Source: Clostridiales bacterium (GTDB taxonomy: Bacteria; Bacillota; Peptococcia; DRI-13; UBA5745). From it: a DNA stretch of 64,000 nt. Shown one piece after another: positions 1 through 56,335 of the stretch (position 1 is its first letter; each line of letters starts with the position of its first letter). Location of the stretch: assembly GCA_038562165.1 (NCBI GenBank), contig JBCFAO010000018.1:764-64763 (forward strand), written 5' to 3'. The translations under genes were made by a program, and so were the position numbers. A model generated the notes under the pieces. That model searched no databases and had not been told where the DNA came from. It worked only from the letters and a program-made list of their open reading frames with translations.

Positions 1-8
1 ATTTTGAG

Positions 9-854
9 GTGAACGCAGTGGCGGTTAACGAAAAATACTTGCCGGATGTTGAGGCAATACTATCCCACAGGCACGATAATGGGGCGGACTTTTGGACAAC
101 CCCGGATAAACGTTTGCTGAAGGGCTCTCCCTTTTCCGCCTACAATAGCGCCCTTATGCTTTTGGAATTGGGAATGGAACCGGCAGACCCCACACTTACG
201 GAAGTAGCTGAGCTGTTTTTCAGCGCCTGGCGGGAGGACGGCCGTTTTAAGCTATACCCCCAAGGCGGCATTTTACCCTGTCATACGGCTCTTGCCGCCT
301 CTTTGCTTTGCCAAATGGGATATACTCAAGATGAACGAATCCAAAAAACCCTTCGCCAGCTGCTGGATATTCAATACCATGACGGCGGTTTACGGTGCAA
401 CAAGTTTTCTTTTGGCCGGGGCCCTGAGACGGAATATTCCAATCCCGGCCCTACCCTCACCGCCTTAAACGCTTTTCGCTTCAGCGATTATCTTAATCAA
501 GAGCCTGCTTTGGACAAGGCGGTGGATTTTTTACTGGAGCATTGGGTTGTCAGAAAGCCCCTAGGCCCCTGCCATTATGGTATTGGCACCCTTTTTATGC
601 AGGTGGAGTACCCTTTCGGCAATTATAATCTATTCCAGTATGTTTATATATTGTCTTTCTACAACTATGCCAAGAAAGACAATCGATTCAGAGAGGCCTT
701 TGAAGCCCTGCAAGCAAAACTGGCAGACGAACAAGTTGTGGTTGAACGGGTTGTCCCCAAATTAGCAAAGCTGTCCTTCTGCAAGAAAGGCCAGCCCAGT
801 CAGCTTGCCACAATGCGTTATCAAGAGATTCTTGCCAACCTTGAGCATAGCTGA
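9..854 (+). CDS. prenyltransferase/terpene-cyclase-like (alpha-alpha toroid repeat) protein
   Basis: 281-aa ORF with recurring Asp-Gly-Gly/aromatic motifs (HDNGADFW, REDGRFK, YHDGGLRC) typical of prenyltransferase/squalene-cyclase repeats. GTG at 9 or 18, with GAGGTGA at 6-12. The frame is open to the window edge, so the true start could lie upstream. Confidence 0.5.
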   Translation: MNAVAVNEKYLPDVEAILSHRHDNGADFWTTPDKRLLKGSPFSAYNSALMLLELGMEPADPTLTEVAELFFSAWREDGRFKLYPQGGILPCHTALAASLLCQMGYTQDERIQKTLRQLLDIQYHDGGLRCNKFSFGRGPETEYSNPGPTLTALNAFRFSDYLNQEPALDKAVDFLLEHWVVRKPLGPCHYGIGTLFMQVEYPFGNYNLFQYVYILSFYNYAKKDNRFREAFEALQAKLADEQVVVERVVPKLAKLSFCKKGQPSQLATMRYQEILANLEHS

Positions 855-856
855 AA

Positions 857-1611
857 TGTACAAAATTTGAGGTTTTGGGGCTGTTGTTCCTTTGGAATAG
901 TAGATTCAAACTATGCCTAACACTAAGTATAGGGAGAAATCAGTGTTCAGTAGCGTAAAACTTGAAATTTTGTGCAGTTAGCCAAGGCAAATACACATAA
1001 AAACTCATTTTTTGTACACACGGCCATAACCTGGGAAGCGACTTTTTCAGTGCCCTCTAACAAACCTGCATTTTTGCTCATTTTCCGAGGAGGCAGGGTC
1101 ACTCTGCCTTGAATCTGTCTAAAAATCTCCCAGAAGAGAAGGGCTGCCACAAATTCGGCAGCCCTTTTTACCGGCGGTTTACGATGGTTCGCGACGGTTT
1201 GCAGCGGTTCGCGACGTGGGAGTCCGCAGCTCGCCGTCCGGGACTGTGCCGGTTACAGATGAGCGGTTGCTTAATAACAGCCAGCTCTGTCAGTGGCATA
1301 TTGCCGGCCTGGCGTGGGGTCACCGCTCGGCCGCTCCTTTGGAAAACGTGCAAAATTGCAGGTTTGGGGGTGTTCACAGTAGCTAACTGAGCAAAAATGC
1401 AGGTTTAAAGTGTCTGAGCACCGTCTTTGTGTTGTGGTCAGACGATTTTTTACTGTATCTAGTGTCGCGAAAAATGAATATACCCTATTGCAATGGGACA
1501 ACGCACTTTAAACTTGAAATTTTGCACAAAAACAGCGGGACAGCAGATACAAAGTTGAAATTTTGCTCAGTTAGCTTCAGCAAACGACGACAAACCTGCA
1601 ATTTTGAACAG
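857..1611. repeat. Repeat locus A: 8 copies of the CAAAAWTKCARGTTTGT-core motif in two opposed-array units
   Basis: Forward copies at 857-877, 1348-1366 and 1382-1407. Reverse copies at 957-982, 1060-1080, 1508-1528, 1549-1575 and 1590-1611. Several copies carry the extension GCTAACTG. Spacing within arrays is 40-43 bp. Confidence 0.9.
1141..1170 (+). terminator. intrinsic terminator-like hairpin
   Basis: GGGCTGCC-acaaattc-GGCAGCCC followed by TTTTTA. It lies between the two repeat units of locus A. Confidence 0.55.
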
Positions 1612-1736
1612 TGCCGCGGCCCCTACGTTAATCATTTTTTCAGCAAGAGACTTTCTTTAATCAGCAATTCGGCAATTTGTACGGCATTAGTAGCTGCACC
1701 TTTACGCAGTTGTCTATTTTGTAATATTATATCACT

Positions 1737-1764
1737 TTTACAACCGGCCATTTTATTCTATACT
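1737..1764 (+). promoter_or_regulatory. putative sigma-A promoter of helD
   Basis: TTTACA, a 16-nt spacer, then TATACT, about 35 nt upstream of the AAGGAG RBS and the ATG at 1797. Confidence 0.4.
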
Positions 1765-1796: not shown

Positions 1797-3878
1797 ATGT
1801 ATAACCAAAAGGAAAGTGCCGAAAAAAAGCATTTAGAAGAAGTTCAAGCTAAACTCAAAACTGCCTTGGAGCAAATCATCAAGAAAGTAGACAGCTATTT
1901 CAAAGAAATATTAGAAGCGAAACGCTATATAAACGAAAACCTGGCCCAGCTTGATTCCGCCGAAAAAGCCGCCAATAGAATGATTGTTTCCGATAGCGTT
2001 ACCCTTGGGGAAAACGCCGTAAAAGAGCGGGAGCGGCTGCAAAAGCTGCTGCAATCGCCTTACTTCGGGAGAATCGATTTTGACAGCGCAAAAGGAGCAA
2101 AGGCTGAAGTATTCTATATCGGCATACATGGCTTTGCCGAGCCGCTGACTTCTCACCCCATCATTTTTGACTGGCGGGCCCCCGTCTCAAGCATGTTTTA
2201 TGATTTTGAGGTGGGTCCGGCCTTCTATGTGGCCCCCATGGGCAAAATCGACGGTGTGCTGACCTTGAAGCGTCAATATCGGATCAGGCAAGGTCAAATG
2301 GAGTATATGCTGGAAAACTCCTTAAATATTGGCGATGAAATTCTCCAAAAAGAATTGAGCCGGAATTCCGGCGATAAAATGAAAAACATTGTGGCCACAA
2401 TCCAAAGAGAGCAAAATGCCGTCATTAGAAATGAAGAGGCAAACGTATTAATTATTCAAGGAGCGGCCGGTTCCGGCAAAACCTCCATAGCCTTGCATCG
2501 GGTGGCTTTCTTATTATATCGCAACAAGGATACGCTGACCTCAAAAAACATTCTGATTTTTTCTCCCAATAAAGTGTTCGGCAACTACATCGCCAATGTT
2601 CTGCCTGAATTGGGAGAGGAACATATAGAGGAAATCGGTGTTGACGACATAGCCTCAAGCATGCTGGGTAAGAAGTATCGCTACCAAACCTTCTTTGAAC
2701 AAGTAGAAAGCTTATTAGATGGCGGCAATGCCGAAGCAATTGCCAGAATCCAATTTAAAGCAACGAATCACTTTGTCGAAGTACTGCATAGGTATTTGGA
2801 ATACATTGACGAAAATGGCTTTACTCCCGCTGATTTTCGATTGGGCAACTTCCATGTCTCCAAAGAAAAGCTGTTTTCTGTCTACCGTTCCCTCAAAAAG
2901 CTACCCATTAAAAAGCGGTTGCGAAAAATGGCAGAGGATTTAATCGAAAAACATCAAAGCGCCACAAACACAAAAATAGCCGCCGCCTTTTGCCGTCAAA
3001 TAAGAGACGCGATACAAAACATGTTCCAATTTGCCGATAGTTTTACGGTATATCAAAATTTCTACCGCTTCATCGGCCAAGATCACTTATTTCAGCTTAT
3101 CCGCAAAAATACTTTTGAATTCTGTGATGTTTACCCTTTCATCTATGTAAAAATCTATGTAGACGGAGCAGAACAGGATTTCAAAAATATCCGGCACTTG
3201 CTGGTGGATGAAATGCAGGATTATACGCCTATTCAATATGCAGTTTTATCGAAGCTGTTTTCCTGCAAAATGACTATTCTGGGGGACAGCTACCAAAGCG
3301 TAAACCCTTATAGCTCCTCCTCCGCAGAAAAGATTCGCCCTTATTTCGGCGGCTGCCACTGTATGGAATTGTCCAGGAGTTATCGTTCAACTCTTGAGAT
3401 TGTGGAATTTACCCAAAGAATATTAAAGAATGAAAAGTTGCTGCCTATGGAAAGGCATGGGGATATTCCAACAGTAACCATATGCCAAACCCCAAAAGAG
3501 CATATGGATAAAATAAAGCTGCTGCTTGAGCAATTCCACCAATCTCAATATGTCTCCTTAGGCGTCATCTGCAAATCCCAGAAACAGGCGAAGCTGCTTT
3601 TTGAAGAACTACACACCTTAGGCAACGTATTTTTGTTGAGTTCTGCGGGCAGCGAGTTTCGCAATGGTATTGTCATTACTTCCGTCCACATGTCGAAAGG
3701 CCTGGAATTTGACCAGGTGATTATTCCCGACGCCTCTGAAGAGCTTTATCAAACTTCCTTAGACCGCAGCCTGCTCTATATTGCCTGTACCAGGGCCATG
3801 CACAAATTAGATTTAACTTGTTGGGGACGGCAGACAAAGTTTATGGATTCGGCTAATCAGGCCATAATCTGCCAGTAG
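1797..3878 (+). CDS. helD: HelD-type UvrD-like helicase (helicase IV / RNA polymerase recycling factor)
   Basis: 693 aa. N-terminal coiled region, then FGRIDF..FYIGIHG..DWRAPVSSMFY. Walker A GAAGSGKTS, motif II LLVDEMQDY, and C-terminal SVHMSKGLEFD and YIACTRAMH. Confidence 0.8.
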   Translation: MYNQKESAEKKHLEEVQAKLKTALEQIIKKVDSYFKEILEAKRYINENLAQLDSAEKAANRMIVSDSVTLGENAVKERERLQKLLQSPYFGRIDFDSAKGAKAEVFYIGIHGFAEPLTSHPIIFDWRAPVSSMFYDFEVGPAFYVAPMGKIDGVLTLKRQYRIRQGQMEYMLENSLNIGDEILQKELSRNSGDKMKNIVATIQREQNAVIRNEEANVLIIQGAAGSGKTSIALHRVAFLLYRNKDTLTSKNILIFSPNKVFGNYIANVLPELGEEHIEEIGVDDIASSMLGKKYRYQTFFEQVESLLDGGNAEAIARIQFKATNHFVEVLHRYLEYIDENGFTPADFRLGNFHVSKEKLFSVYRSLKKLPIKKRLRKMAEDLIEKHQSATNTKIAAAFCRQIRDAIQNMFQFADSFTVYQNFYRFIGQDHLFQLIRKNTFEFCDVYPFIYVKIYVDGAEQDFKNIRHLLVDEMQDYTPIQYAVLSKLFSCKMTILGDSYQSVNPYSSSSAEKIRPYFGGCHCMELSRSYRSTLEIVEFTQRILKNEKLLPMERHGDIPTVTICQTPKEHMDKIKLLLEQFHQSQYVSLGVICKSQKQAKLLFEELHTLGNVFLLSSAGSEFRNGIVITSVHMSKGLEFDQVIIPDASEELYQTSLDRSLLYIACTRAMHKLDLTCWGRQTKFMDSANQAIICQ

Positions 3879-4797
3879 CATATTCCTTGCCGGATTTAGC
3901 CTCCCGCACTTTTACCACATCATCGTCGTTAAGATTGCCAAAAAGCAACGGTCCTGTTTCATGGTGGGCCGCCATATTGCGGGCAACGGTTTTTGCACTA
4001 TAGTTAGCATAGCAGTAAAGGCAGCGGTTTGCACAGGTATCATAAGCCCCGATATCTATGCTGGCAATACAGCCGCATTCCCGGCGCTGGTTAGGGTCTT
4101 TTGTTATCTTGAGATTATATCCTGACAAACGCTCCAGCCTCGCTTGCTCGATACAGCGGGCAGGCATAATGTCAAATTTCCTCAAATCCATTTCCTCCGC
4201 ACAAGTGTCGATATAAAGTCCTTCATTCCTTGCAATAGCAGAGAATTGCTCCATTAATTCTTCTTTTTCTTCCATAGATGGTTTCACGATACCCAGGGGC
4301 GAAATATTTCGCTCCGTTTTTTTGTAAAAATCCAAAAAGCTCACCGTGCACTTTTCGGTGTACCCCGCCAGCTTTGACGCCAATAGCTTGAAATATTTAA
4401 GATGATAGGCCATGGAATACTTCTCACTGAAAAAAATCGGATCGTAACGCCAAACTACTTTATCCTTGCCAATTTCTTGGGACAGCCGCTGAAAGGCAGG
4501 GATGATAACGTCGTTTTTTGCGGGCACATTGGGCTCCGCATCTATGCCATAGGCATTTAACGTAAATTGAAAGTAATAGGTATAGTCTTTAAGCTCTTCA
4601 AGCCTATTCAGCATAGGCAAAGGGTTTTTGGTCCAAAACACAATACCGTCCACCACATCCGGCAAAAGGCTGATTCGGCCAACCTGATGGGAGTTCATGG
4701 GATTGCGGACAAGCACATAACCTTCCTTCAGGCGGTTAAAGAACCAGCCGGAATAATACGCCGGGATATCCGTACGCCTGCTTGCACTTATAATCAT
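3853..4797 (-). CDS. DUF1848 family protein (radical-SAM-clan-like, C-terminal Cys cluster)
   Basis: MIISASRRTDIPAYYSGWFFNRLKEGYV..WRYDPI..NQRRECGCIASIDIGAYDTCANRCLYCYAN. I chose the start at internal Met 28 (4797), which has GTGAGGA 7 nt upstream; the long ORF reaches 4878. The 3' end overlaps helD convergently by 26 bp. Confidence 0.7.
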   Translation of the reverse strand: MIISASRRTDIPAYYSGWFFNRLKEGYVLVRNPMNSHQVGRISLLPDVVDGIVFWTKNPLPMLNRLEELKDYTYYFQFTLNAYGIDAEPNVPAKNDVIIPAFQRLSQEIGKDKVVWRYDPIFFSEKYSMAYHLKYFKLLASKLAGYTEKCTVSFLDFYKKTERNISPLGIVKPSMEEKEELMEQFSAIARNEGLYIDTCAEEMDLRKFDIMPARCIEQARLERLSGYNLKITKDPNQRRECGCIASIDIGAYDTCANRCLYCYANYSAKTVARNMAAHHETGPLLFGNLNDDDVVKVREAKSGKEYATGRLWPD

Positions 4798-4875
4798 GCC
4801 GAATTCCTCACTTCCCATCCTCCTGCCATAACATTTTAACATGGCTCCGGCGAAAGTAAAACTTAGCAATGGCAA

Positions 4876-4897
4876 CAAAAAAGGCTCCGAAGAGCCT
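4876..4897 (-). terminator. intrinsic terminator after bofA
   Basis: On the minus strand, AGGCTC-ttcg-GAGCCT followed by TTTTTT. Confidence 0.7.
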
Positions 4898-4946
4898 CAA
4901 TCCTCAAAAAACCGTTCTTTTCCCAAATAGCAATTATTCTTCTAAA

Positions 4947-5216
4947 TCATAAAAACAGAAAGGATAATACGGAAAGCAGCCCCAGACCCGGAGCCCCCAG
5001 AACGCCAACACCGATAACTGTCACCGGGTTCATGGGCAGGTGAAAGCCGGCAAAATTGCCAACTAAATTAAGAATACATAAAACGCCTAAAGCCAGGGCA
5101 CAGTTTACCACTACCCGGCTGACGGTCTTCATTGGCCCCATGACCATCCTGGTCAGCACCATCAGGATCATCAGCAACACCATTCCGGCTATAATTACAC
5201 CAATTTCAACCATCAT
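4947..5216 (-). CDS. bofA: pro-sigma-K processing inhibitor BofA
   Basis: 89-aa two-TM protein. The C-terminal ..GFHLPMNPVTVIGVGVLGAPGLGLL.. resembles B. subtilis BofA, and the synteny position downstream of recR-yaaL fits. Confidence 0.75.
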   Translation of the reverse strand: MMVEIGVIIAGMVLLMILMVLTRMVMGPMKTVSRVVVNCALALGVLCILNLVGNFAGFHLPMNPVTVIGVGVLGAPGLGLLSVLSFLFL

Positions 5217-15885: not shown

Positions 15886-16991
15886 TGGGCTTCACCTCGG
15901 CTTACCACATTAAGCTTTCTTCCTTCCGTCACCGCATACTGGCCTTCTACGATAATCCGGTCACCTTCTGCCAAACCGCTGAGAACTTCCGCTTCATTGC
16001 CCAGGGTCATGCCTATGGTCACCAGCTTTTTGTGAGCTACGCCGGATTCCTCTACAAATACTGCGGTGCCTTCCTCCAGCCGCAAAACAGCATATTGGGG
16101 TATAACCAAAGCATTTTCAATTTTCTCTACCACCAGCTTAATTTCCCCATACATACCGCCCTTGATCCCTAAATCCTGGTTATCCACCTCGATGGTAACC
16201 GTATAAGCCCTGGTTTGGGGATTAATATTGGGAGGCACGGTTTTGACCCGGCCTTTAACGGGAGTGTCGCTGAAAGAGGGAATCAGAATATCCATCTCGT
16301 CTCCCGTCTTCACTCCCATAATATAATTCTCGCCAACCTGCACATCCAGCAGCAGTTTATCGATATTGACTACCATAGCCACCGGTGTAGAGGCAGCGGC
16401 AAACTGGCCTTCCATTACCGGCAAAGCGCTGACAATGCCGTTGATGGTGGAAGTTATCGCCATTTTCTCCCGGTTTAGCCGCAAAGTCTCCAATTGCAGG
16501 TCAATCTGCTTAATTTGGTTTTCTAAGGTGGTAAGTTGGCCTTCCGCCATAGCGCCTGCCTCAAACAAGGCTTTATTCTTATCGTAACTCTCCTGGAGCT
16601 GTTCTTTATTTAAAAGCAGGTTCTGTTCCTGAATATCCAGGTCCCGCATGTCTTGGGTCAAGATAACCTGCCCTTTGCGCACAGGATCGCCTACCTTGAC
16701 AGCTACCTGCAGCACCTTGCTGCCAACGCCGCCGCCCATCAGCGTCACTTCTTCCTGGGGACGCAAAAGGCCGCCTAAGGTCAGCGTCTTATTAAGATCC
16801 CGGCGCACTGCCTCCGTTACGGTAACAGGCAAAGCTATTTCCTCCTGAACCTGGCCGGTGGTTTCGCTGCCGCCAGCCGCAGCCTGAGCCGTCTCGCCGC
16901 CTGAAGCGCAGCCTGCCAGGCTAAAGGCTAGCAAGCATAAGAAAACCAAGGTAATAAAGCCATACATATGATTACGGATTTTTTGGGACAT
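15882..16991 (-). CDS. efflux RND transporter periplasmic adaptor (MFP) lipoprotein
   Basis: Lipobox FSLAGC, a coiled-coil hairpin region and a beta-barrel C-terminus. Overlaps the RND gene by 4 bp. Confidence 0.9.
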   Translation of the reverse strand: MSQKIRNHMYGFITLVFLCLLAFSLAGCASGGETAQAAAGGSETTGQVQEEIALPVTVTEAVRRDLNKTLTLGGLLRPQEEVTLMGGGVGSKVLQVAVKVGDPVRKGQVILTQDMRDLDIQEQNLLLNKEQLQESYDKNKALFEAGAMAEGQLTTLENQIKQIDLQLETLRLNREKMAITSTINGIVSALPVMEGQFAAASTPVAMVVNIDKLLLDVQVGENYIMGVKTGDEMDILIPSFSDTPVKGRVKTVPPNINPQTRAYTVTIEVDNQDLGIKGGMYGEIKLVVEKIENALVIPQYAVLRLEEGTAVFVEESGVAHKKLVTIGMTLGNEAEVLSGLAEGDRIIVEGQYAVTEGRKLNVVSRGEAQ

Positions 16992-21160: not shown

Positions 21161-21363
21161 AAAGCGTTTCCTTTCCCCGAAAGATATCGATAGTCCTGAG
21201 GGGTGAAACCTTTTTTTACTTAGATGGTCTAAATATTTTTTAGGATATTTTTAGTATACTTATGGATGTTTGGTTATACAAATCCTGGGATAAGTATTAG
21301 TAGCTCAACTTTCCTAAATTTCGCTATACACATGCCACTCCACACTACCGTGGGCCTCCCGTC

Positions 21364-21465
21364 TTGCTCAAAAATGCAGGTTTGTCAACCGTCGGCTTGG
21401 GAAATGTGCAAAATTGCAAGTTTGTAGTGTCCACTCACAGCGTTTTGCTCAAAATTTCAAGTTTA
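21364..21465. repeat. Repeat locus B, forward array (3 copies, 40-41 bp period)
   Basis: Copies at 21364-21385, 21405-21425 and 21445-21465: TTGCTCAAAAATGCAGGTTTGT / TGTGCAAAATTGCAAGTTTGT / TTGCTCAAAATTTCAAGTTTA. Confidence 0.9.
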
Positions 21466-21546
21466 GAGGGCGTATTCCGGCCTGAAAATAGGGTTTTCCT
21501 CCTATTTATCGGCTAAATCTGTTCCAAAGCGGTGATTTAGGCATGA

Positions 21547-21650
21547 ACAAACCTGCATTTTTGCACAGTTAGTTCAAGCTAACAACGACAAACCTGCATT
21601 TTTGCTCAGTTAGCCCCGGCGAACAACGACAAACCTGCATTTTTGAGCAG
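21547..21650. repeat. Repeat locus B, reverse array (3 copies, 41 bp period)
   Basis: Copies at 21547-21572, 21588-21614 and 21629-21650: ACAAACCTGCATTTTTGC(A/T)CAGTTAG(C). The linker AACAACG is also repeated. Confidence 0.9.
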
Positions 21651-21658
21651 ATCACAGT

Positions 21659-21771
21659 CTCCCACTACTGCCGCCTCACACTACTGCCGCCTTACACTAC
21701 TGCCGCCTTACACTACTGACGCCTTCCACTACTGACGCCTTCCACTACTGACGCCTTCCACTGCAGCCCCC
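21659..21771. repeat. 16-bp tandem repeat (about 7 units, TTMCACTACTGMCGCC)
   Basis: Units start at 21661, 21676, 21692, 21708, 21724, 21740 and 21756. The unit length is not a multiple of 3. Two sub-variants (CTGCCGCC, then CTGACGCC) occur in blocks. Confidence 0.9.
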
Positions 21772-21877
21772 CACTGCCTCCACTACCCACCCCTGACGAT
21801 TATAATTTTTCGGGCAGCCAGGATATTAAGCAAAATAACTGGCAGCTTTCGTTAATTACAGCAGAATACAATGACCC

Positions 21878-21909
21878 GGCAAAAAGGCAAAAAGGCGAAA
21901 AGGCAAAAA
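21878..21909. repeat. 8-bp A-tract tandem repeat (GGCRAAAA x4)
   Basis: GGCAAAAA GGCAAAAA GGCGAAAA GGCAAAAA. Confidence 0.85.
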
Positions 21910-21986
21910 GGTGCTGTCTCAATTGGCATCAGTCTCAGTCTGTCGTACTGCCCGCTGCCTTAGTGATTCTATCGCGGGTCCTGGCT

Positions 21987-22144
21987 GTGCAAAAATCGAG
22001 GTTGTGCACTGATTTTGTAGGCCTTCAAGCTAAACGACCGTAATTTTTTCGGTTTCACTCCAATTTTTCCTTGAATTTGCGAATTTTTTCGGTTACGCCT
22101 ATATTATCTAGTGCTAACTTCTTGCACAACCTCGATTTTTGCAC
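21987..22144. repeat. perfect 22-bp inverted-repeat pair (variant of the family motif) enclosing 114 bp
   Basis: GTGCAAAAATCGAGGTTGTGCA at 21987-22008 and its exact reverse complement at 22123-22144. The interior holds the direct repeat AATTTTTTCGGTT twice (about 22041 and 22082). Confidence 0.9.
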
Positions 22145-22150
22145 ACTTGA

Positions 22151-22213
22151 GGGGGTTACTGCCGGGGGCGGGGGCGGTGCCGGGGCGGTGCCGGGGGCGG
22201 TGCCGGGGCGGGT
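22151..22213 (+). other. G-run tandem repeat (GCCGGGGCGGT-like x4), potential G-quadruplex on the plus strand
   Basis: GGGGGttactgccGGGGGcGGGGGcGGtgccGGGGcGGtgccGGGGGcGGtgccGGGGcGGG. Confidence 0.6.
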
Positions 22214-50727: not shown

Positions 50728-51885
50728 TTACTTGCCTGACCGGCCAAGCTGCAGGCCCAGTGCAACGGCCCGCAGCAGCCGCTGGGCGGCGGCACAGACC
50801 ATATCCTCAGCCTCGGCCATAGCCTGATCCAGAGTCATGGGAGAGCAGACCGCCGCCTCGGCGGCCGCAATTCCGGCGGCATAGACAGCTTCAAGATCCC
50901 GGGCCAGAGAACCGGCCAGAGCCACCACGGGCACACCAAGCTCTCCGGCTTTGCGGGCAATGCCCGCCGGGGTTTTGCCAAAGGCCGACTGCCCATCCAG
51001 CCTGCCCTCCCCGGTAATGACCAAGTCCGTCTGACGAAGTTTTTCTTCAAAGCCGGCGGCGGCAAGCAGAAAATCGATACCGGGATAGAGCTTGGCTTTT
51101 GTAAAAGCCATCAAGCCAAAACCCAGACCGCCGGCGGCGCCGGCGCCGGGTACTTCAGCCAAGTCCTGGCCCAGACAGTCTTTAACGAGAGCCGCCAGGC
51201 GGGCCAGGCCGGAGTCCAGCAAAATGATTTCTTCCTGGCCTGCTCCTTTCTGGGATCCGTAAACTTGAGCCGCTCCCTGCCTGCCGCAAAGGGGATTGGT
51301 CACATCGCAGAGCACTATAATTTCCGCTGCCAGAATTCTGGAATCCAAAGAGGATATGTCTATCCGGCTGATCCGGGCTAAATCCCGGCCCCCGGCCCCC
51401 GGCTCCAGCATCTGCTCCTGGGCATCAAAAAAACGGATGCCTAAAGCCTGAGCCATTCCCAGGCCGCCGTCATTGGTAGCCGAACCGCCGATGCCCACAT
51501 ATAGCCTCCGGCAGCCTTGATCCAGGGCCGCCAGCATTAGCTCTCCGGTGCCGTAGGTGCTGGCGGCCATGATGTCCAATTGATCCGCGGACAGCAGAGT
51601 AAGACCGGAAGCGGAGGCCATATCGATGACAGCGGCGCCGTCAGGCAAAACACCGTAAGCCGCCTCCACTTTTTTGCCCAAAGGGCCGCTGACTACAGCC
51701 CGGCACAGCCTGCCTTCCAAGGCCTGGGTTAAAGTCCGGGCCGTGCCTTCCCCGCCGTCGGCAATAGGCAGGCAAACAATTTCGGCGGCGGGAAATACCC
51801 GCAGCGCCCCCCGGGCTATGGCTGCCGCAGCTTCGCTGCTGCTGAGGCTGCCTTTAAAAGAATCGCAAGCAATCATGATACGCAT
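50728..51885 (-). CDS. glxK: glycerate kinase
   Basis: MRIMIACDSFKGSLSS.., IADGGEGT, GIGGSATNDGG. I chose the start at Met 49 of the long ORF. The upstream 144 nt of that ORF is the 11-bp repeat tract. Confidence 0.9.
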   Translation of the reverse strand: MRIMIACDSFKGSLSSSEAAAAIARGALRVFPAAEIVCLPIADGGEGTARTLTQALEGRLCRAVVSGPLGKKVEAAYGVLPDGAAVIDMASASGLTLLSADQLDIMAASTYGTGELMLAALDQGCRRLYVGIGGSATNDGGLGMAQALGIRFFDAQEQMLEPGAGGRDLARISRIDISSLDSRILAAEIIVLCDVTNPLCGRQGAAQVYGSQKGAGQEEIILLDSGLARLAALVKDCLGQDLAEVPGAGAAGGLGFGLMAFTKAKLYPGIDFLLAAAGFEEKLRQTDLVITGEGRLDGQSAFGKTPAGIARKAGELGVPVVALAGSLARDLEAVYAAGIAAAEAAVCSPMTLDQAMAEAEDMVCAAAQRLLRAVALGLQLGRSGK

Positions 51886-51895
51886 AGGCCTTTTA

Positions 51896-51960
51896 TCTCC
51901 TGTTTCCTGTCTTTTTCCTGTCTGTTTCCTGTCTGTTTCCTGTCTGTTTCCTATCTTTAC
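51896..51960 (-). repeat. 11-bp tandem repeat (about 6 units, mRNA sense GAAACAGACAG) in the glxK 5' leader
   Basis: mRNA sense: GAUAG GAAACAGACAG x3, GAAAAAGACAG, GAAACAGGAG, AUAAAAGGCCU, AUG. The last unit merges into the Shine-Dalgarno. Confidence 0.9.
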
Positions 51961-52058
51961 CCTTTTTTCCTCATCCTGCATCCTTAGGATACCAGAGTCA
52001 ATCTTTATTGTTAACTGCTTTCTTCGCAAAACCTATGGCAAAGCAAAGCCTTCTCAGT

Positions 52059-52093
52059 AAAAAAGATGCTGCCGCGAATTTGCGGCAGCATCT
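52059..52093 (-). terminator. intrinsic terminator after the ABC ATPase gene
   Basis: AGATGCTGCCGC-6 nt-GCGGCAGCATCT followed by TTTTTT on the minus strand. Confidence 0.85.
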
Positions 52094-52097
52094 TTAC

Positions 52098-52892
52098 TTA
52101 TGAAAGAACCAGCTTGTCCTCGGCTTCGTCGGAGCCGCTGGCCCGGCTGAAGAGCTCCAGGAGCTTTTCAACGGTGAGCTTTTCCTTCTCCTCCCCGGAG
52201 ACATCCACGACGATCTGCCCTTCATAAAGCATAATCAAACGGTTGCCGTGCATAATAGCGTCCTTCATGTTGTGGGTGATCATCAAGGTGGTGAGCTTAT
52301 CCCGGTTAACGATGAGATCCGTGGTGTCCAGCACCTTGGCCGCCGTTTTGGGATCAAGGGCTGCCGTATGCTCGTCCAGCAGCAGGAGCCGGGGCTTTTT
52401 TATGGTGGCCATCAGCAAGGTCAAAGCCTGCCGCTGACCTCCGGAAAGCAAGCCCACCTTAGTGGTCAGCCGGTCCTCCAGGCCAAGGCCCAAAGAGGCC
52501 AGCAACTGACGGTATTGCCCCCGTTCTTTCTGGGAAATGCCCCAGCGCAGGCTGCGCTTTTGCCCCCGGCGCAGGGCCAGGGCCAAATTTTCTTCAATGC
52601 CCATACTGGCGGCGGTACCCATCATGGGGTCCTGAAAAACCCGGCCGATAAAAGCGGCCCGCTTATATTCCGGCAAACGGGTTACATCGTCGCCGCCAAT
52701 AAGGATACGCCCGCCGTCTACGGGAAAAACGCCTGCTACGGCATTGAGCATAGTAGATTTACCGGCGCCGTTGCCGCCGATAACCGTGACGAATTCTCCG
52801 TCTTTCAGGACAAGGGAAAGGCCTTTTAAAGCGATTTTTTCGTTAACCGTATTATGATTAAAGGTTTTGCTGATGTTTTGTATTTCAAGCAT
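52098..52892 (-). CDS. ABC transporter ATP-binding protein (COG1101-like)
   Basis: Walker A GGNGAGKST, signature LSGGQRQ, Walker B LLLLDE. The ATG at 52892 overlaps the permease stop by 8 bp. Confidence 0.9.
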   Translation of the reverse strand: MLEIQNISKTFNHNTVNEKIALKGLSLVLKDGEFVTVIGGNGAGKSTMLNAVAGVFPVDGGRILIGGDDVTRLPEYKRAAFIGRVFQDPMMGTAASMGIEENLALALRRGQKRSLRWGISQKERGQYRQLLASLGLGLEDRLTTKVGLLSGGQRQALTLLMATIKKPRLLLLDEHTAALDPKTAAKVLDTTDLIVNRDKLTTLMITHNMKDAIMHGNRLIMLYEGQIVVDVSGEEKEKLTVEKLLELFSRASGSDEAEDKLVLS

Positions 52893-55176: not shown

Positions 55177-55192
55177 TATTGTTACTGCTTGT

Positions 55193-55507
55193 TTAGACTT
55201 CCTCTGAAACATTACGTCTGCTGTAAACAATTCTGCGAACTTCCATAACTTCGCCTATTACCACATAAAAAACGGTATAATTTCCGACATAAATACGGTA
55301 GTATGGGTATTGGCGTTCTTTTGCGGAATGGTATTGCTCAAATGCTTCCGCGCAAGAAAGCCGTTCTCGAATTGCTTGCTGTACATCGTCCACAAGCGCT
55401 TCCGCTGCGGTTGGATTCTTAAGCCGTCCCGTAATATAGTCCACGATGTCGTTCAAATCCTTCTCAAATAGAGGAAGAAACCGCAGTTTATAATCCTTTT
55501 TGTTCAT
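55193..55507 (-). CDS. type II toxin-antitoxin system RelE/ParE family toxin
   Basis: 104 aa: ..YRIYVGNYTVFYVVIGEVMEVRRIVYSRRN. Overlaps the antitoxin gene by 20 bp. Confidence 0.85.
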   Translation of the reverse strand: MNKKDYKLRFLPLFEKDLNDIVDYITGRLKNPTAAEALVDDVQQAIRERLSCAEAFEQYHSAKERQYPYYRIYVGNYTVFYVVIGEVMEVRRIVYSRRNVSEEV

Positions 55508-55757
55508 GGATGCGTCTCCTCACCCTGCTGAAAACTTCATCTTCCTTATAACGGATGCTATCTCCTGCTGCGGCTTTATCCGCCTCGTCCAGCTTCAATT
55601 CGATTTCATTTGTCAGCGCGGCGTATTGTTCCAGACTGAGTACAACCATAGAGCCATATCCGTTTTTGGTCAGATAGACAGGTTGGCCTTTTTTTACCGT
55701 GTCCTCAATTTCCGTAAACTTATTCCTTAAATCCGAAACAGGCCGAATGGTGATCAT
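55488..55757 (-). CDS. type II toxin-antitoxin system Phd/YefM family antitoxin
   Basis: MITIRPVSDLRNKFTEIEDTVKKGQPVYLTKNGYGSMVVLS. The ATG at 55757 has GGAAGGAGG 9 nt upstream. Confidence 0.85.
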   Translation of the reverse strand: MITIRPVSDLRNKFTEIEDTVKKGQPVYLTKNGYGSMVVLSLEQYAALTNEIELKLDEADKAAAGDSIRYKEDEVFSRVRRRIHEQKGL

Positions 55758-56007
55758 TTTGCACAACCTCCTTCCATTGAAATTAAAAGTACCTTGGCGC
55801 TATTTTATCATAATTACGCCATTTTGCCAATGGATTTTCGTGAAGTTCAAAAGATCATAATTCTTTGCTTAATATCTAAATTCCCCGCAAAATTAAACCA
55901 TACATCAAGAAAAGCCGCCAATGATCAGATTTGTCATGCCAAGGTTGACTCGGAATTCGCTTTTGTCCGGTCTGCAGGCTTTGTCCTCTGGTGGTGCGGA
56001 CGTTTTC

Positions 56008-56241
56008 TGTGCAAAAATGCAGGTTTGTATCCAGTAAGGGCGCCAGTTGAGCAAAAATGCAGGTTTGTAGACACCCCTTAGAGTTATGGCAGCTCAAAAA
56101 ATAAGTAGAAATGTATGCCTTGGATGTATTTAGTACCCTGGCAGAAATGAATTCACTACCAAACTGTAAAAAATGTTTAAGCTTTCAAACATTCCTGCTG
56201 ATAAGGGTCTCTAGACGAAGACAAACTTGCAATTTTGCACA
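56008..56241. repeat. Repeat locus C: two forward copies facing one reverse copy of the family motif
   Basis: TGTGCAAAAATGCAGGTTTGT (56008-56028), TGAGCAAAAATGCAGGTTTGT (56048-56068) and ACAAACTTGCAATTTTGCACA (56221-56241). The centre is 152 bp of unique sequence. Confidence 0.9.
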
Positions 56242-56335
56242 GAGGGGGGACCTCAATAAGCCAACCACCCCCTGCCGGTGGGGGCATGCCCATTTCTTTC
56301 CATTAGGTTAATAGACAATCATAAAAAAAGTTAGC

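Follow-up and report, generated by a model that had tools for sequence, protein, structure and literature searches.

Bacterial MITEs derived from insertion sequences, such as Correia/NEMIS, RUP and MITEAba12, are small, non-coding, multi-copy intergenic elements with inverted ends. The REP/BIME repeats of enterobacteria and pseudomonads, including the RAYT-mobilised REPINs, are high-copy intergenic mosaics of opposed short modules that lack target duplications, often lie at gene 3' ends and are preferred targets of certain insertion sequences. The pneumococcal BOX elements (boxA-boxBn-boxC) are modular intergenic repeats with a variable number of an internal module of ~45 bp. Several direct sites of ~20 bp, bound in these transposons by the transposase, at each of two inverted ends, with 5'-TG...CA-3' termini, are found in Tn7 (the TnsB sites), Mu (L1-3/R1-3), IS21 and Tn402/Tn5053. 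Long inverted arms made of tandem sub-repeats, which in their case bind transposase, are a feature of eukaryotic foldback (FB) transposons and of transposons with subterminal repeats (CACTA, P).

The array-bearing elements described here share the features just listed with these systems, but differ from each of them. Unlike in IS-derived MITEs, the arms of the elements at unit 2 and locus B (see below) consist of one site in two to four phased copies, not of a single terminal repeat, and we found neither a target duplication nor a cognate insertion sequence. In contrast to REP/BIME, the 20-nt core is non-palindromic, the period is 40/41 bp, a forward block faces a reverse block, no RAYT gene was seen near the sampled arrays, and the sequence is unrelated. 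BOX modules all point in one direction and end in different modules, whereas the present elements have one module in two opposed blocks. The Tn7, Mu, IS21 and Tn402 class of elements makes duplications of 4-8 bp and carries transposase genes; the present arrays are 230-600 bp long and have neither. The likeness to FB, CACTA and P elements, which are eukaryotic and generate target duplications, is an architectural analogy only.

The repeats came to attention in a 64,000-nucleotide stretch of clostridial DNA (the window), where an earlier note had described two consecutive facing-array units in the 940-base gap before the helicase gene helD (locus A) and had raised the question whether they come and go with helD and the neighbouring DUF1848 gene. 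We find that the gap contains no genes and is a patchwork of small, multi-copy relics of mobile DNA, the two units of which are of different kinds.

Results

Repeat motif and its arrangement

A core of ~20 nt, TG(W)GCAAAAWTKCARGTTTGT, occurs in 19 copies in the window, where ~1 would be expected. Searching with GCAAAATTTCAAGTTT at up to three mismatches gave 18 matches in the window (1.4 expected; at most five in 100 shuffles), grouped at locus A (857-1615), locus B (21360-21654) and locus C (56003-56246). Trained on the motif copies, a position-weight matrix with the consensus CTAACTG(T/A)GCAAAA(T/A)TGCAGGTTTGT found 333 matches in the window and the fetched loci together, 19 of them within the window, against one in shuffled sequence. 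Nearly every motif cluster consists of a forward block followed by a reverse block that faces it, with two to four copies per arm in the array elements. Neighbouring copies on the same strand are spaced by 40 bp in 72 cases and by 41 bp in 79 cases. The core TGWGCAAAAWTKCARGTTTGT is not self-complementary and so lacks the short imperfect palindrome of the REP type; weak palindromy is limited to some of the linkers (GTTAGC...GCTAAC). There are several classes of linker, and the same linkers reappear between loci. When 20 copies of the main array family are compared in pairs, identity is 0.84-0.90 for the inner cores, against 0.33-0.67 for the linkers, 0.58 for the centre and 0.20 for the flanks. 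Conservation of the cores far above the linkers marks the core as the constrained part of the element and points to a phased protein-binding site.

Better conserved cores would also be expected if a host protein bound the cores. The boxes recognised by CodY, Rex, CRP and Spo0A presumably resemble the motif only in part. A sigma-54 promoter was ruled out by inspection, the GG/GC spacing being unsuitable. A CRISPR array was ruled out by the facing blocks and by the reappearance of linkers between loci in few classes, the period here being 40/41 bp.

Composition of locus A

The features of locus A and of related loci are collected in Table 1. All eight motif copies listed in the earlier note were recovered by matrix scan and repeat finding; the first does start directly behind the upstream gene (stop codon at 852-854, copy from 857), and repeat finding added a degenerate reverse copy at 999-1018 that had been overlooked. 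That the gap is non-coding repeat DNA, and that the open reading frames listed in it are not genes, is borne out: no Pfam match was found for any of them, and the DNA that carries frames 1109-1390 and 1429-1767 has no counterpart at the orthologous locus in the sister metagenome-assembled genome (MAG), Clostridia bacterium R1-B15.2 (JAHDMJ01; 92-98% nucleotide identity over orthologous DNA). The peptides RRQTCNFEQ (frame 1429-1767) and RRQTCNFAQ (frame 56111-56311), which had been noticed as a recurrence, are both the translated reverse-strand motif. The upstream prenyltransferase-like gene had no Pfam match either. The strong hairpin terminator seen earlier is real, is kept in the sister MAG and probably terminates the prenyltransferase-like gene. 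The promoter-like region upstream of helD is also conserved with the sister MAG. At gathering thresholds Rfam gave no match in the whole window, and no tRNA was found there; a relaxed Rfam scan of 700-1900 gave three chance-level matches far under gathering, namely ctRNA_p42d at 24.8 versus 50 bits (a generic hairpin) and two weaker ones. Independent Logan assemblies of the window's own species confirm positions 1-908 and 1577 onward and break inside the repeats, as expected of short-read contigs in multi-copy DNA. The stretch 909-1576 rests on the window record, joined up to 1166 by the sister-MAG orthologue.

Table 1. Positions of features in the window; strand is given as + or -, with a point where a feature has no single strand.
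Feature	Position	Strand	Remarks
Prenyltransferase-like gene	9-854	+	100% identical to a protein named 'prenyltransferase' by NCBI
Unit 1, truncated IS1182-type MITE	857-1057	-	~36 nt missing at the far end, one terminal inverted repeat (TIR) among them
Motif-like copies inside the unit 1 MITE	857-876(+), 954-981(-), 999-1018(-)		
MITE TIR GAGGGCACTGAAAAAGTC	1040-1057	-	18/18 exact match to the end of an IS1182-family insertion sequence, 0.03 expected
Solo terminal motif copy of older array element	1058-1085	-	orthologous to the terminal reverse copy of the intact array in strain L079
Intrinsic-terminator-like hairpin	1136-1175	+	13-bp stem then UUUUUA, dG -23.9 kcal/mol, z -4.7
Unit 2 at full extent, discrete ~455-bp array-bearing element	1167-1623	.	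specific to the window lineage at this site
10-bp minisatellite (CGACGGTTCG)x3.5, outer left end of unit 2	1175-1216	+	Tandem Repeats Finder
Unit 2 forward arm	1342-1410	+	two motif copies 41 bp apart; matrix 27.3 and 36.1 bits
Unit 2 reverse arm	1506-1615	-	three motif copies 41 bp apart; matrix 31-35 bits
The eight motif copies as placed by the matrix	852-879(+), 954-981(-), 1058-1085(-), 1342-1369(+), 1383-1410(+), 1506-1533(-), 1547-1574(-), 1588-1615(-)		
3' remnant of asd-like gene, 89 bp	1624-1712	-	end of the 339-aa Semialdhyde_dh gene of the sister MAG
Promoter-like site upstream of helD	1737-1764	+	TTTACA, 16-nt spacer, TATACT; consensus scan only
UvrD/HelD-like helicase gene	1797-3878		followed by DUF1848, bofA, recR, ybaB, dnaX
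Alignment to sister MAG, L066 9984-11144	1-1166		92.3% identity
Alignment to sister MAG, L066 12081-12169	1624-1712		96.6% identity
Alignment to sister MAG, L066 13126 onward	1713 onward		93.5% identity
Locus B, type example of the main array family	21366-21650	.	3 forward + 3 reverse copies; ends TGCTCAAAA...TTTTGAGCA
16-bp minisatellite (CACTACTGACGCCTTA)x6.2 directly beside the alpha end of locus B	21663-21762	+	Tandem Repeats Finder; GCAGT core in complement
Facing pair of variant motif (TGTGCAAAAATCGAGGTTGTGCA)	21981-22150	.	weak matrix matches; arms 23 nt, 100% complementary
Locus C, short version of a ~600-bp family	55876-56310	.	~30-bp TIR CCTRASTTCCCGCAAAATTAAACC; from alignments and flanks

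Unit 1 is a truncated IS1182-type MITE next to the one copy that survives from an older array element, an arrangement found in the sister MAG too. Over its whole length the MITE aligns with full-length, TIR-bounded MITEs of ~235 bp at four fetched loci (L026, L032, L050 and L060). An insertion sequence ending in GAGGGCACTGAAAAAGTC is present in a metagenome contig (L073) and at a MAG locus (L054), where it encodes a transposase of the IS1182 type with DUF772 and DDE_Tnp_1 domains. Full-length members of the MITE family have target duplications of 8-9 bp (TACAAACC, AGACAAACC, CTGAGCAC and GATAGTGCA); in the window copy a single target copy survives (TAACAAACC at 1058-1066), because the element is truncated. 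As a family, these MITEs have the features that define an IS-derived MITE, and unit 1 would be classed as an ordinary addition to a known kind of element. In strain L079, whose upstream gene shows 89% identity, the MITE is absent from this place and an intact array element follows the stop codon. The MITE, present in the window and the sister MAG and absent from L079, is thus an insertion polymorphism between relatives. IS1182-type terminal repeats abut GGTTTGTNN, the tail of the array motif, or its complement in 12-15 of 26 cases, and for the IS1182-type insertion sequence itself the site is GCA^GGTTTGT.

Unit 2 is a separate element, and the two units can no longer be regarded as equivalent. 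Its paralogue homology spans 1176-1612 (L015 2238-2770, 79-81% in two pieces; L010, 88%; L058, 81%), the limits of this homology coincide with those of the unit, and a sharp right edge is evident where paralogue depth drops from ~85 to 0 at 1612-1616. The sister-MAG orthologue does not contain 1167-1623, which is therefore specific to the window lineage; at this position the MAG has a MerR/GyrI-like gene and an asd-like (aspartate-semialdehyde-dehydrogenase-like) gene. Apart from the remnant at 1624-1712, the asd-like gene has been deleted in the window lineage. Relatives do have coding genes within 900-1750, as the earlier note had considered they might if its repeat reading were wrong; in the window lineage these genes have been displaced or deleted and are not hidden in the repeats. 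Since unit 2 replaces a gene and leaves no clean empty site, its arrival needs at least two events. An independent assembly (L001) bears out its right junction, and its left junction, 1166/1167, is seen in the window record alone. The direct repeat GGTTCGCGACG x2 reported earlier is real and forms part of the (CGACGGTTCG)x3.5 minisatellite, which falls inside the segment homologous to L015 2770-2564. It had been placed between the units; given the extent of unit 2, it lies within that unit.

Other array elements and their distribution

Array elements are small (230-600 bp), non-coding and multi-copy, with inverted ends and with paralogues at unlinked loci. Locus B has 25 paralogues of 68-80% identity, and the depth of homology falls to 0 within ~5 nt at both ends. 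In this main family the homologous stretch is bounded by TG(N)(N)CAAAA and, at its other end, by TTTTG(N)(N)CA, giving termini of the form 5'-TG...CA-3' without target duplication. The two arms have a common core and different linkers: the alpha arm (...GTCGTYGTTNGC...GGCTAACTGW) has a 41-bp period, the beta arm (...GTTTCCAGGGTCGTGGCATTTTGA) a 40-bp period. The central hairpin is conserved in the family. GCAGTR motifs are found in 31% of the outer flanks of alpha arms (background, 3.4%), and minisatellites with GCAGTG-like motifs often adjoin the alpha end. Locus B is absent from the orthologous site of JAHDLZ01, a relative at 80-86% identity whose intergenic DNA is too diverged for a precise empty site to be defined. 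The variant motif of the facing pair near locus B recurs in L008, L011, L012 and L048.

Locus C is present in the sister MAG. Full-length copies of its family, ~600 bp long, have a ~30-bp TIR with a GCAAAATTA core that stands in exact 41-bp phase with the inner copies (55888 + 3x41 = 56011). At 15 of 16 ends a TA is found 0-3 nt further out, a weak 'TA' signal. The youngest pair, reported alongside this family, is 97.5% identical over 487 bp. A diversity-generating retroelement at locus C was rejected, as the centre differences (21/66) are mostly transitions of all kinds and are not adenine-specific.

The sister MAG carries at least 70 facing arrays, all of them intergenic. Scanning 185,579 species-representative genomes for a two-copy pattern, a genome-wide census of the sort proposed in the earlier note, returned at least 64 stretches; among the matches listed all come from R1-B15.2, so the family does recur in a related genome as well as at loci B and C. 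The same pattern was found in only two contigs of the JGI metagenomes, both from a near relative, and in none of the viral contigs. No good motif copy was found in ~84 kb sampled from relatives at ~80% identity. With many copies in near relatives and no good one in this sample, the family is abundant but lineage-restricted. Arrays are over-represented between convergent genes (18/51 versus 78/466). One insertion found only in the MAG, between DUF1848 and bofA, is a fully palindromic element of 423 bp with 2 + 2 facing copies of a variant motif at 41-bp spacing; it lies inside a terminator hairpin, is flanked by CCGAAG(AG)CC, and has its empty site in the window at 4878-4947.

We looked for target duplications of the array elements in several ways. 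None was found at fixed offsets (left and right -2 to 39, k from 3 to 9) or at the palindrome boundaries, and direct repeats in the 60-nt flanks, scored as the longest shared k-mer, were in no excess over a control with shuffled partners. Lacking a duplication, the elements do not fit the DDE transposons that have multi-site ends (Tn7, Mu, IS21). Copies of the main family, at 68-80% identity, are however old enough for short duplications to have been lost to erosion; the younger family C, on the other hand, gives no more than its weak 'TA' signal. In ~580 kb of sampled sequence we found no transposase or candidate binding protein next to arrays, no arm pair that encloses a gene, and no cognate autonomous element with the same ends. 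No transposases are among the multi-copy families of reading frames near arrays, which encode chemoreceptors, periplasmic binding proteins and sigma-54 activators. Reading frames between nearby arrays look by eye like a dehydrogenase, a metallo-hydrolase and a MarR-like protein, and the sampled loci contain no RAYT. One frame that the MAG lacks encodes a glycerate kinase and is no insertion sequence. Searches of the literature for similar elements in bacteria gave nothing useful.

Discussion

We favour the view, with a probability of roughly 0.6, that locus A was built up in layers from non-autonomous, non-coding mobile-element DNA and includes no functional unit tied to helD. The common ancestor had an array-bearing element just 3' of the prenyltransferase-like gene, as one strain still has in intact form. 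An IS1182-type MITE inserted into the GGTTTGTNN tail of the terminal copy of that element, and a later deletion left the truncated MITE at 857-1057 and the solo copy at 1058-1085. In the window lineage a second array element, of ~455 bp (1167-1623), stands where the MerR/GyrI-like gene would be, with the neighbouring asd-like gene cut to 89 bp.

The idea that the motif copies are operators, binding sites of a regulator of helD and DUF1848 that come and go with those genes, finds some encouragement in the position of unit 2, 180 bp upstream of helD. It is hardly tenable, being already contradicted by the sister MAG, which has helD, DUF1848 and the same promoter region together with unit 1 and without unit 2; the coupling raised in the earlier note is not seen there. 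Moreover, at least 70 arrays adjoin unrelated genes, and more distant relatives have neither arrays nor helD beside the prenyltransferase-like gene. Somewhat better, yet still improbable, is the proposal that the units are transcribed and that their long hairpins act as RNA-level regulators or processing sites. Unit 1 would lie in a 3' UTR, between stop codon and terminator, folding energies are far under those of shuffled sequence, and the central hairpin has a few compensatory pairs. However, the low folding energies are fully accounted for by the inverted repeats, and RNAalifold on 12 copies gave a covariation term of +0.78, which is no support, with nearly all paired columns invariant. No Rfam family is recovered at gathering or relaxed thresholds, and the elements occur in both orientations and in every intergenic context.

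More serious competition comes from resident repeats of the REP/BIME type, maintained by the host and bound by a chromosomal protein such as a nucleoid protein or gyrase. Such arrays would serve as bidirectional terminators, mRNA-stabilising hairpins or supercoiling barriers, and would spread rarely, by an HUH (RAYT-like) enzyme or by recombination, and without target duplication. Much of what we observe would suit this proposal: the array elements have no target duplication, are mosaics of modules with several linker classes, are strictly intergenic with an enrichment between convergent genes, and have cores conserved far above the linkers, a conserved central hairpin and a strong foldback potential (z -5.5 to -8.6). 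They are also targeted specifically by an insertion sequence, to judge from the 12-15 of 26 IS1182-type repeats at the motif tail, much as REPs are targeted by IS1397 and IS621. We nevertheless regard it as rather unlikely. Unlike REPs, the 20-nt core is not palindromic and the copies form same-direction blocks rather than alternating in orientation; no Y1/RAYT gene lies between or beside the arrays in our sample; and the ~84 kb from relatives at ~80% identity that hold no good motif copy are more in keeping with a recent invader than with an old host feature.

If locus A is a deposit of mobile-element DNA, as we favour, the architecture of the arrays suggests how they may have moved. The core would be a sequence-specific, non-palindromic site for a putative binding protein, and a phase of 40/41 bp, about four helical turns, would place the bound proteins on roughly one face of the DNA. 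The inverted arms may act like multi-site transposon ends, to be drawn together by a putative recombinase supplied in trans. In family C the TIR is the outermost in-phase array copy, in keeping with a model in which cleavage occurs at a single terminal site and binding at several subterminal ones. A bolder extension, which we put forward as possible but doubtful, is that the array elements are an undescribed bacterial foldback transposon, with phased 40/41-bp ends and TG...CA termini, which a putative recombinase moves without duplication, and that the arrays are a dedicated landing pad for an IS1182-family element inserting at GCA^GGTTTGTNN.

The repeats are real and lineage-specific, yet belong to a broadly familiar class, that of bacterial MITE-like and REP-like repeats, within which the phased-array elements are a new form of interspersed repeat. 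For annotation, it would be right to remove the open reading frames called between 900 and 1770 and to mark this interval as repeat or mobile-element DNA; repeats of this kind also break short-read assemblies. The combination of phased, conserved, non-palindromic sites with no target duplication and with targeting by an IS1182-family element is unusual and, given a complete genome of this lineage, could bring to light a new DNA-binding or recombinase partner. At this one place three close strains differ by a MITE insertion, the gain of an element and the loss of two genes (MerR/GyrI-like and asd-like), and thus the repeats mark a rearrangement hot spot. If the arrays did prove to be foldback transposons, they and the elements that land in them would amount to a small, self-nesting ecosystem within one lineage of Clostridia.

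Targeting of the array motif by an IS1182-family element

The array motif, a core of about 20 nt repeated in forward and reverse blocks that face each other, defines a separate repeat family that serves an insertion sequence as its landing site. An IS1182-family insertion sequence and its MITEs specifically target the motif, at GCA^GGTTTGTNN, and their insertions into it are accompanied by duplications of 8-9 bp. Full coordinates are listed in the table.

Coordinates of the features discussed
Feature	Sequence	Coordinates	Strand	Remark
IS1182-family insertion sequence (DUF772 + DDE_Tnp_1)	L073 (metagenome contig)	1-1321		
Same	L054 (sister MAG)	1655 onward		
End of the IS1182-type MITE with its target site	window	1040-1066		at array motif
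DUF1848 ORF	window	3853-4878	minus	
Palindromic insertion, 423 bp	L066 (sister MAG)	16315-16738		MAG-only; orthologous to window 4878-4947
Minisatellite, 16-bp x6	window	21663-21762		locus B
Minisatellite, GGCAAAAA x4	window	21878-21911		locus B
Minisatellite, GGGGCGGTGCC x3.6	window	22169-22211		locus B
Family C terminal inverted repeat, degenerate copy	window	21800-21830	minus	inside locus B
Glycerate-kinase gene	window	ORF 50728-52029	minus	region 50840-52099
ParE toxin / Phd-YefM antitoxin pair	window	55193-55507 and 55488-55766	minus	within 55181-55889

Surroundings of the array elements

Three different minisatellites adjoin the array elements of locus B, which typifies the main array family. 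Across the sister MAG (Clostridia bacterium R1-B15.2), an array end often gives way to locus-specific tandem repeats whose units are based on GCAGTG-like motifs. The degenerate family C repeat in locus B and the copy at locus C (window 55865-55895), where a family C element resides, have the same 12 nt, TTGCTTAATATC, immediately beyond the terminal repeat.

The ParE / Phd-YefM pair, which the sister MAG lacks, directly adjoins the locus C element on its left; at this site the MAG has a 38-bp segment inverted, and its element is missing the first ~13 nt. Window and MAG are ~99.5% identical over 1.4 kb around the centre of the element, and within the centre (window 56090-56155) 21 of 66 positions differ, mostly by transitions. 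The window version is matched by other paralogues. The divergent centre possibly reflects gene conversion from another copy, or else an artefact of the MAG consensus.

The palindromic insertion of the MAG lies inside a terminator hairpin in the DUF1848-bofA interval, is flanked by CCGAAG(AG)CC, and carries 2 + 2 facing copies of a variant motif, TGTKCAWTTTTTTCGGTTGTG. For the outermost ~100 bp on either side of this insertion, our sample contains no paralogues. As called, the DUF1848 ORF and the convergent helD-like ORF (ending at 3878) have 26 bp in common at the 3' end of each (window 3853-3878). The glycerate-kinase gene is present in the window but deleted in the sister MAG (L047), save for its last ~110 bp.

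Spacing between facing arms

In the arrays of the fetched loci (L002-L065), the distance that separates the innermost copies of the two facing arms takes discrete values, with classes at 74-76, 85, 95, 114, 138 and 148 bp, several of which differ by about 10 bp. These classes may represent subfamilies, or they may result from a constraint on the helical phase of one arm relative to the other.
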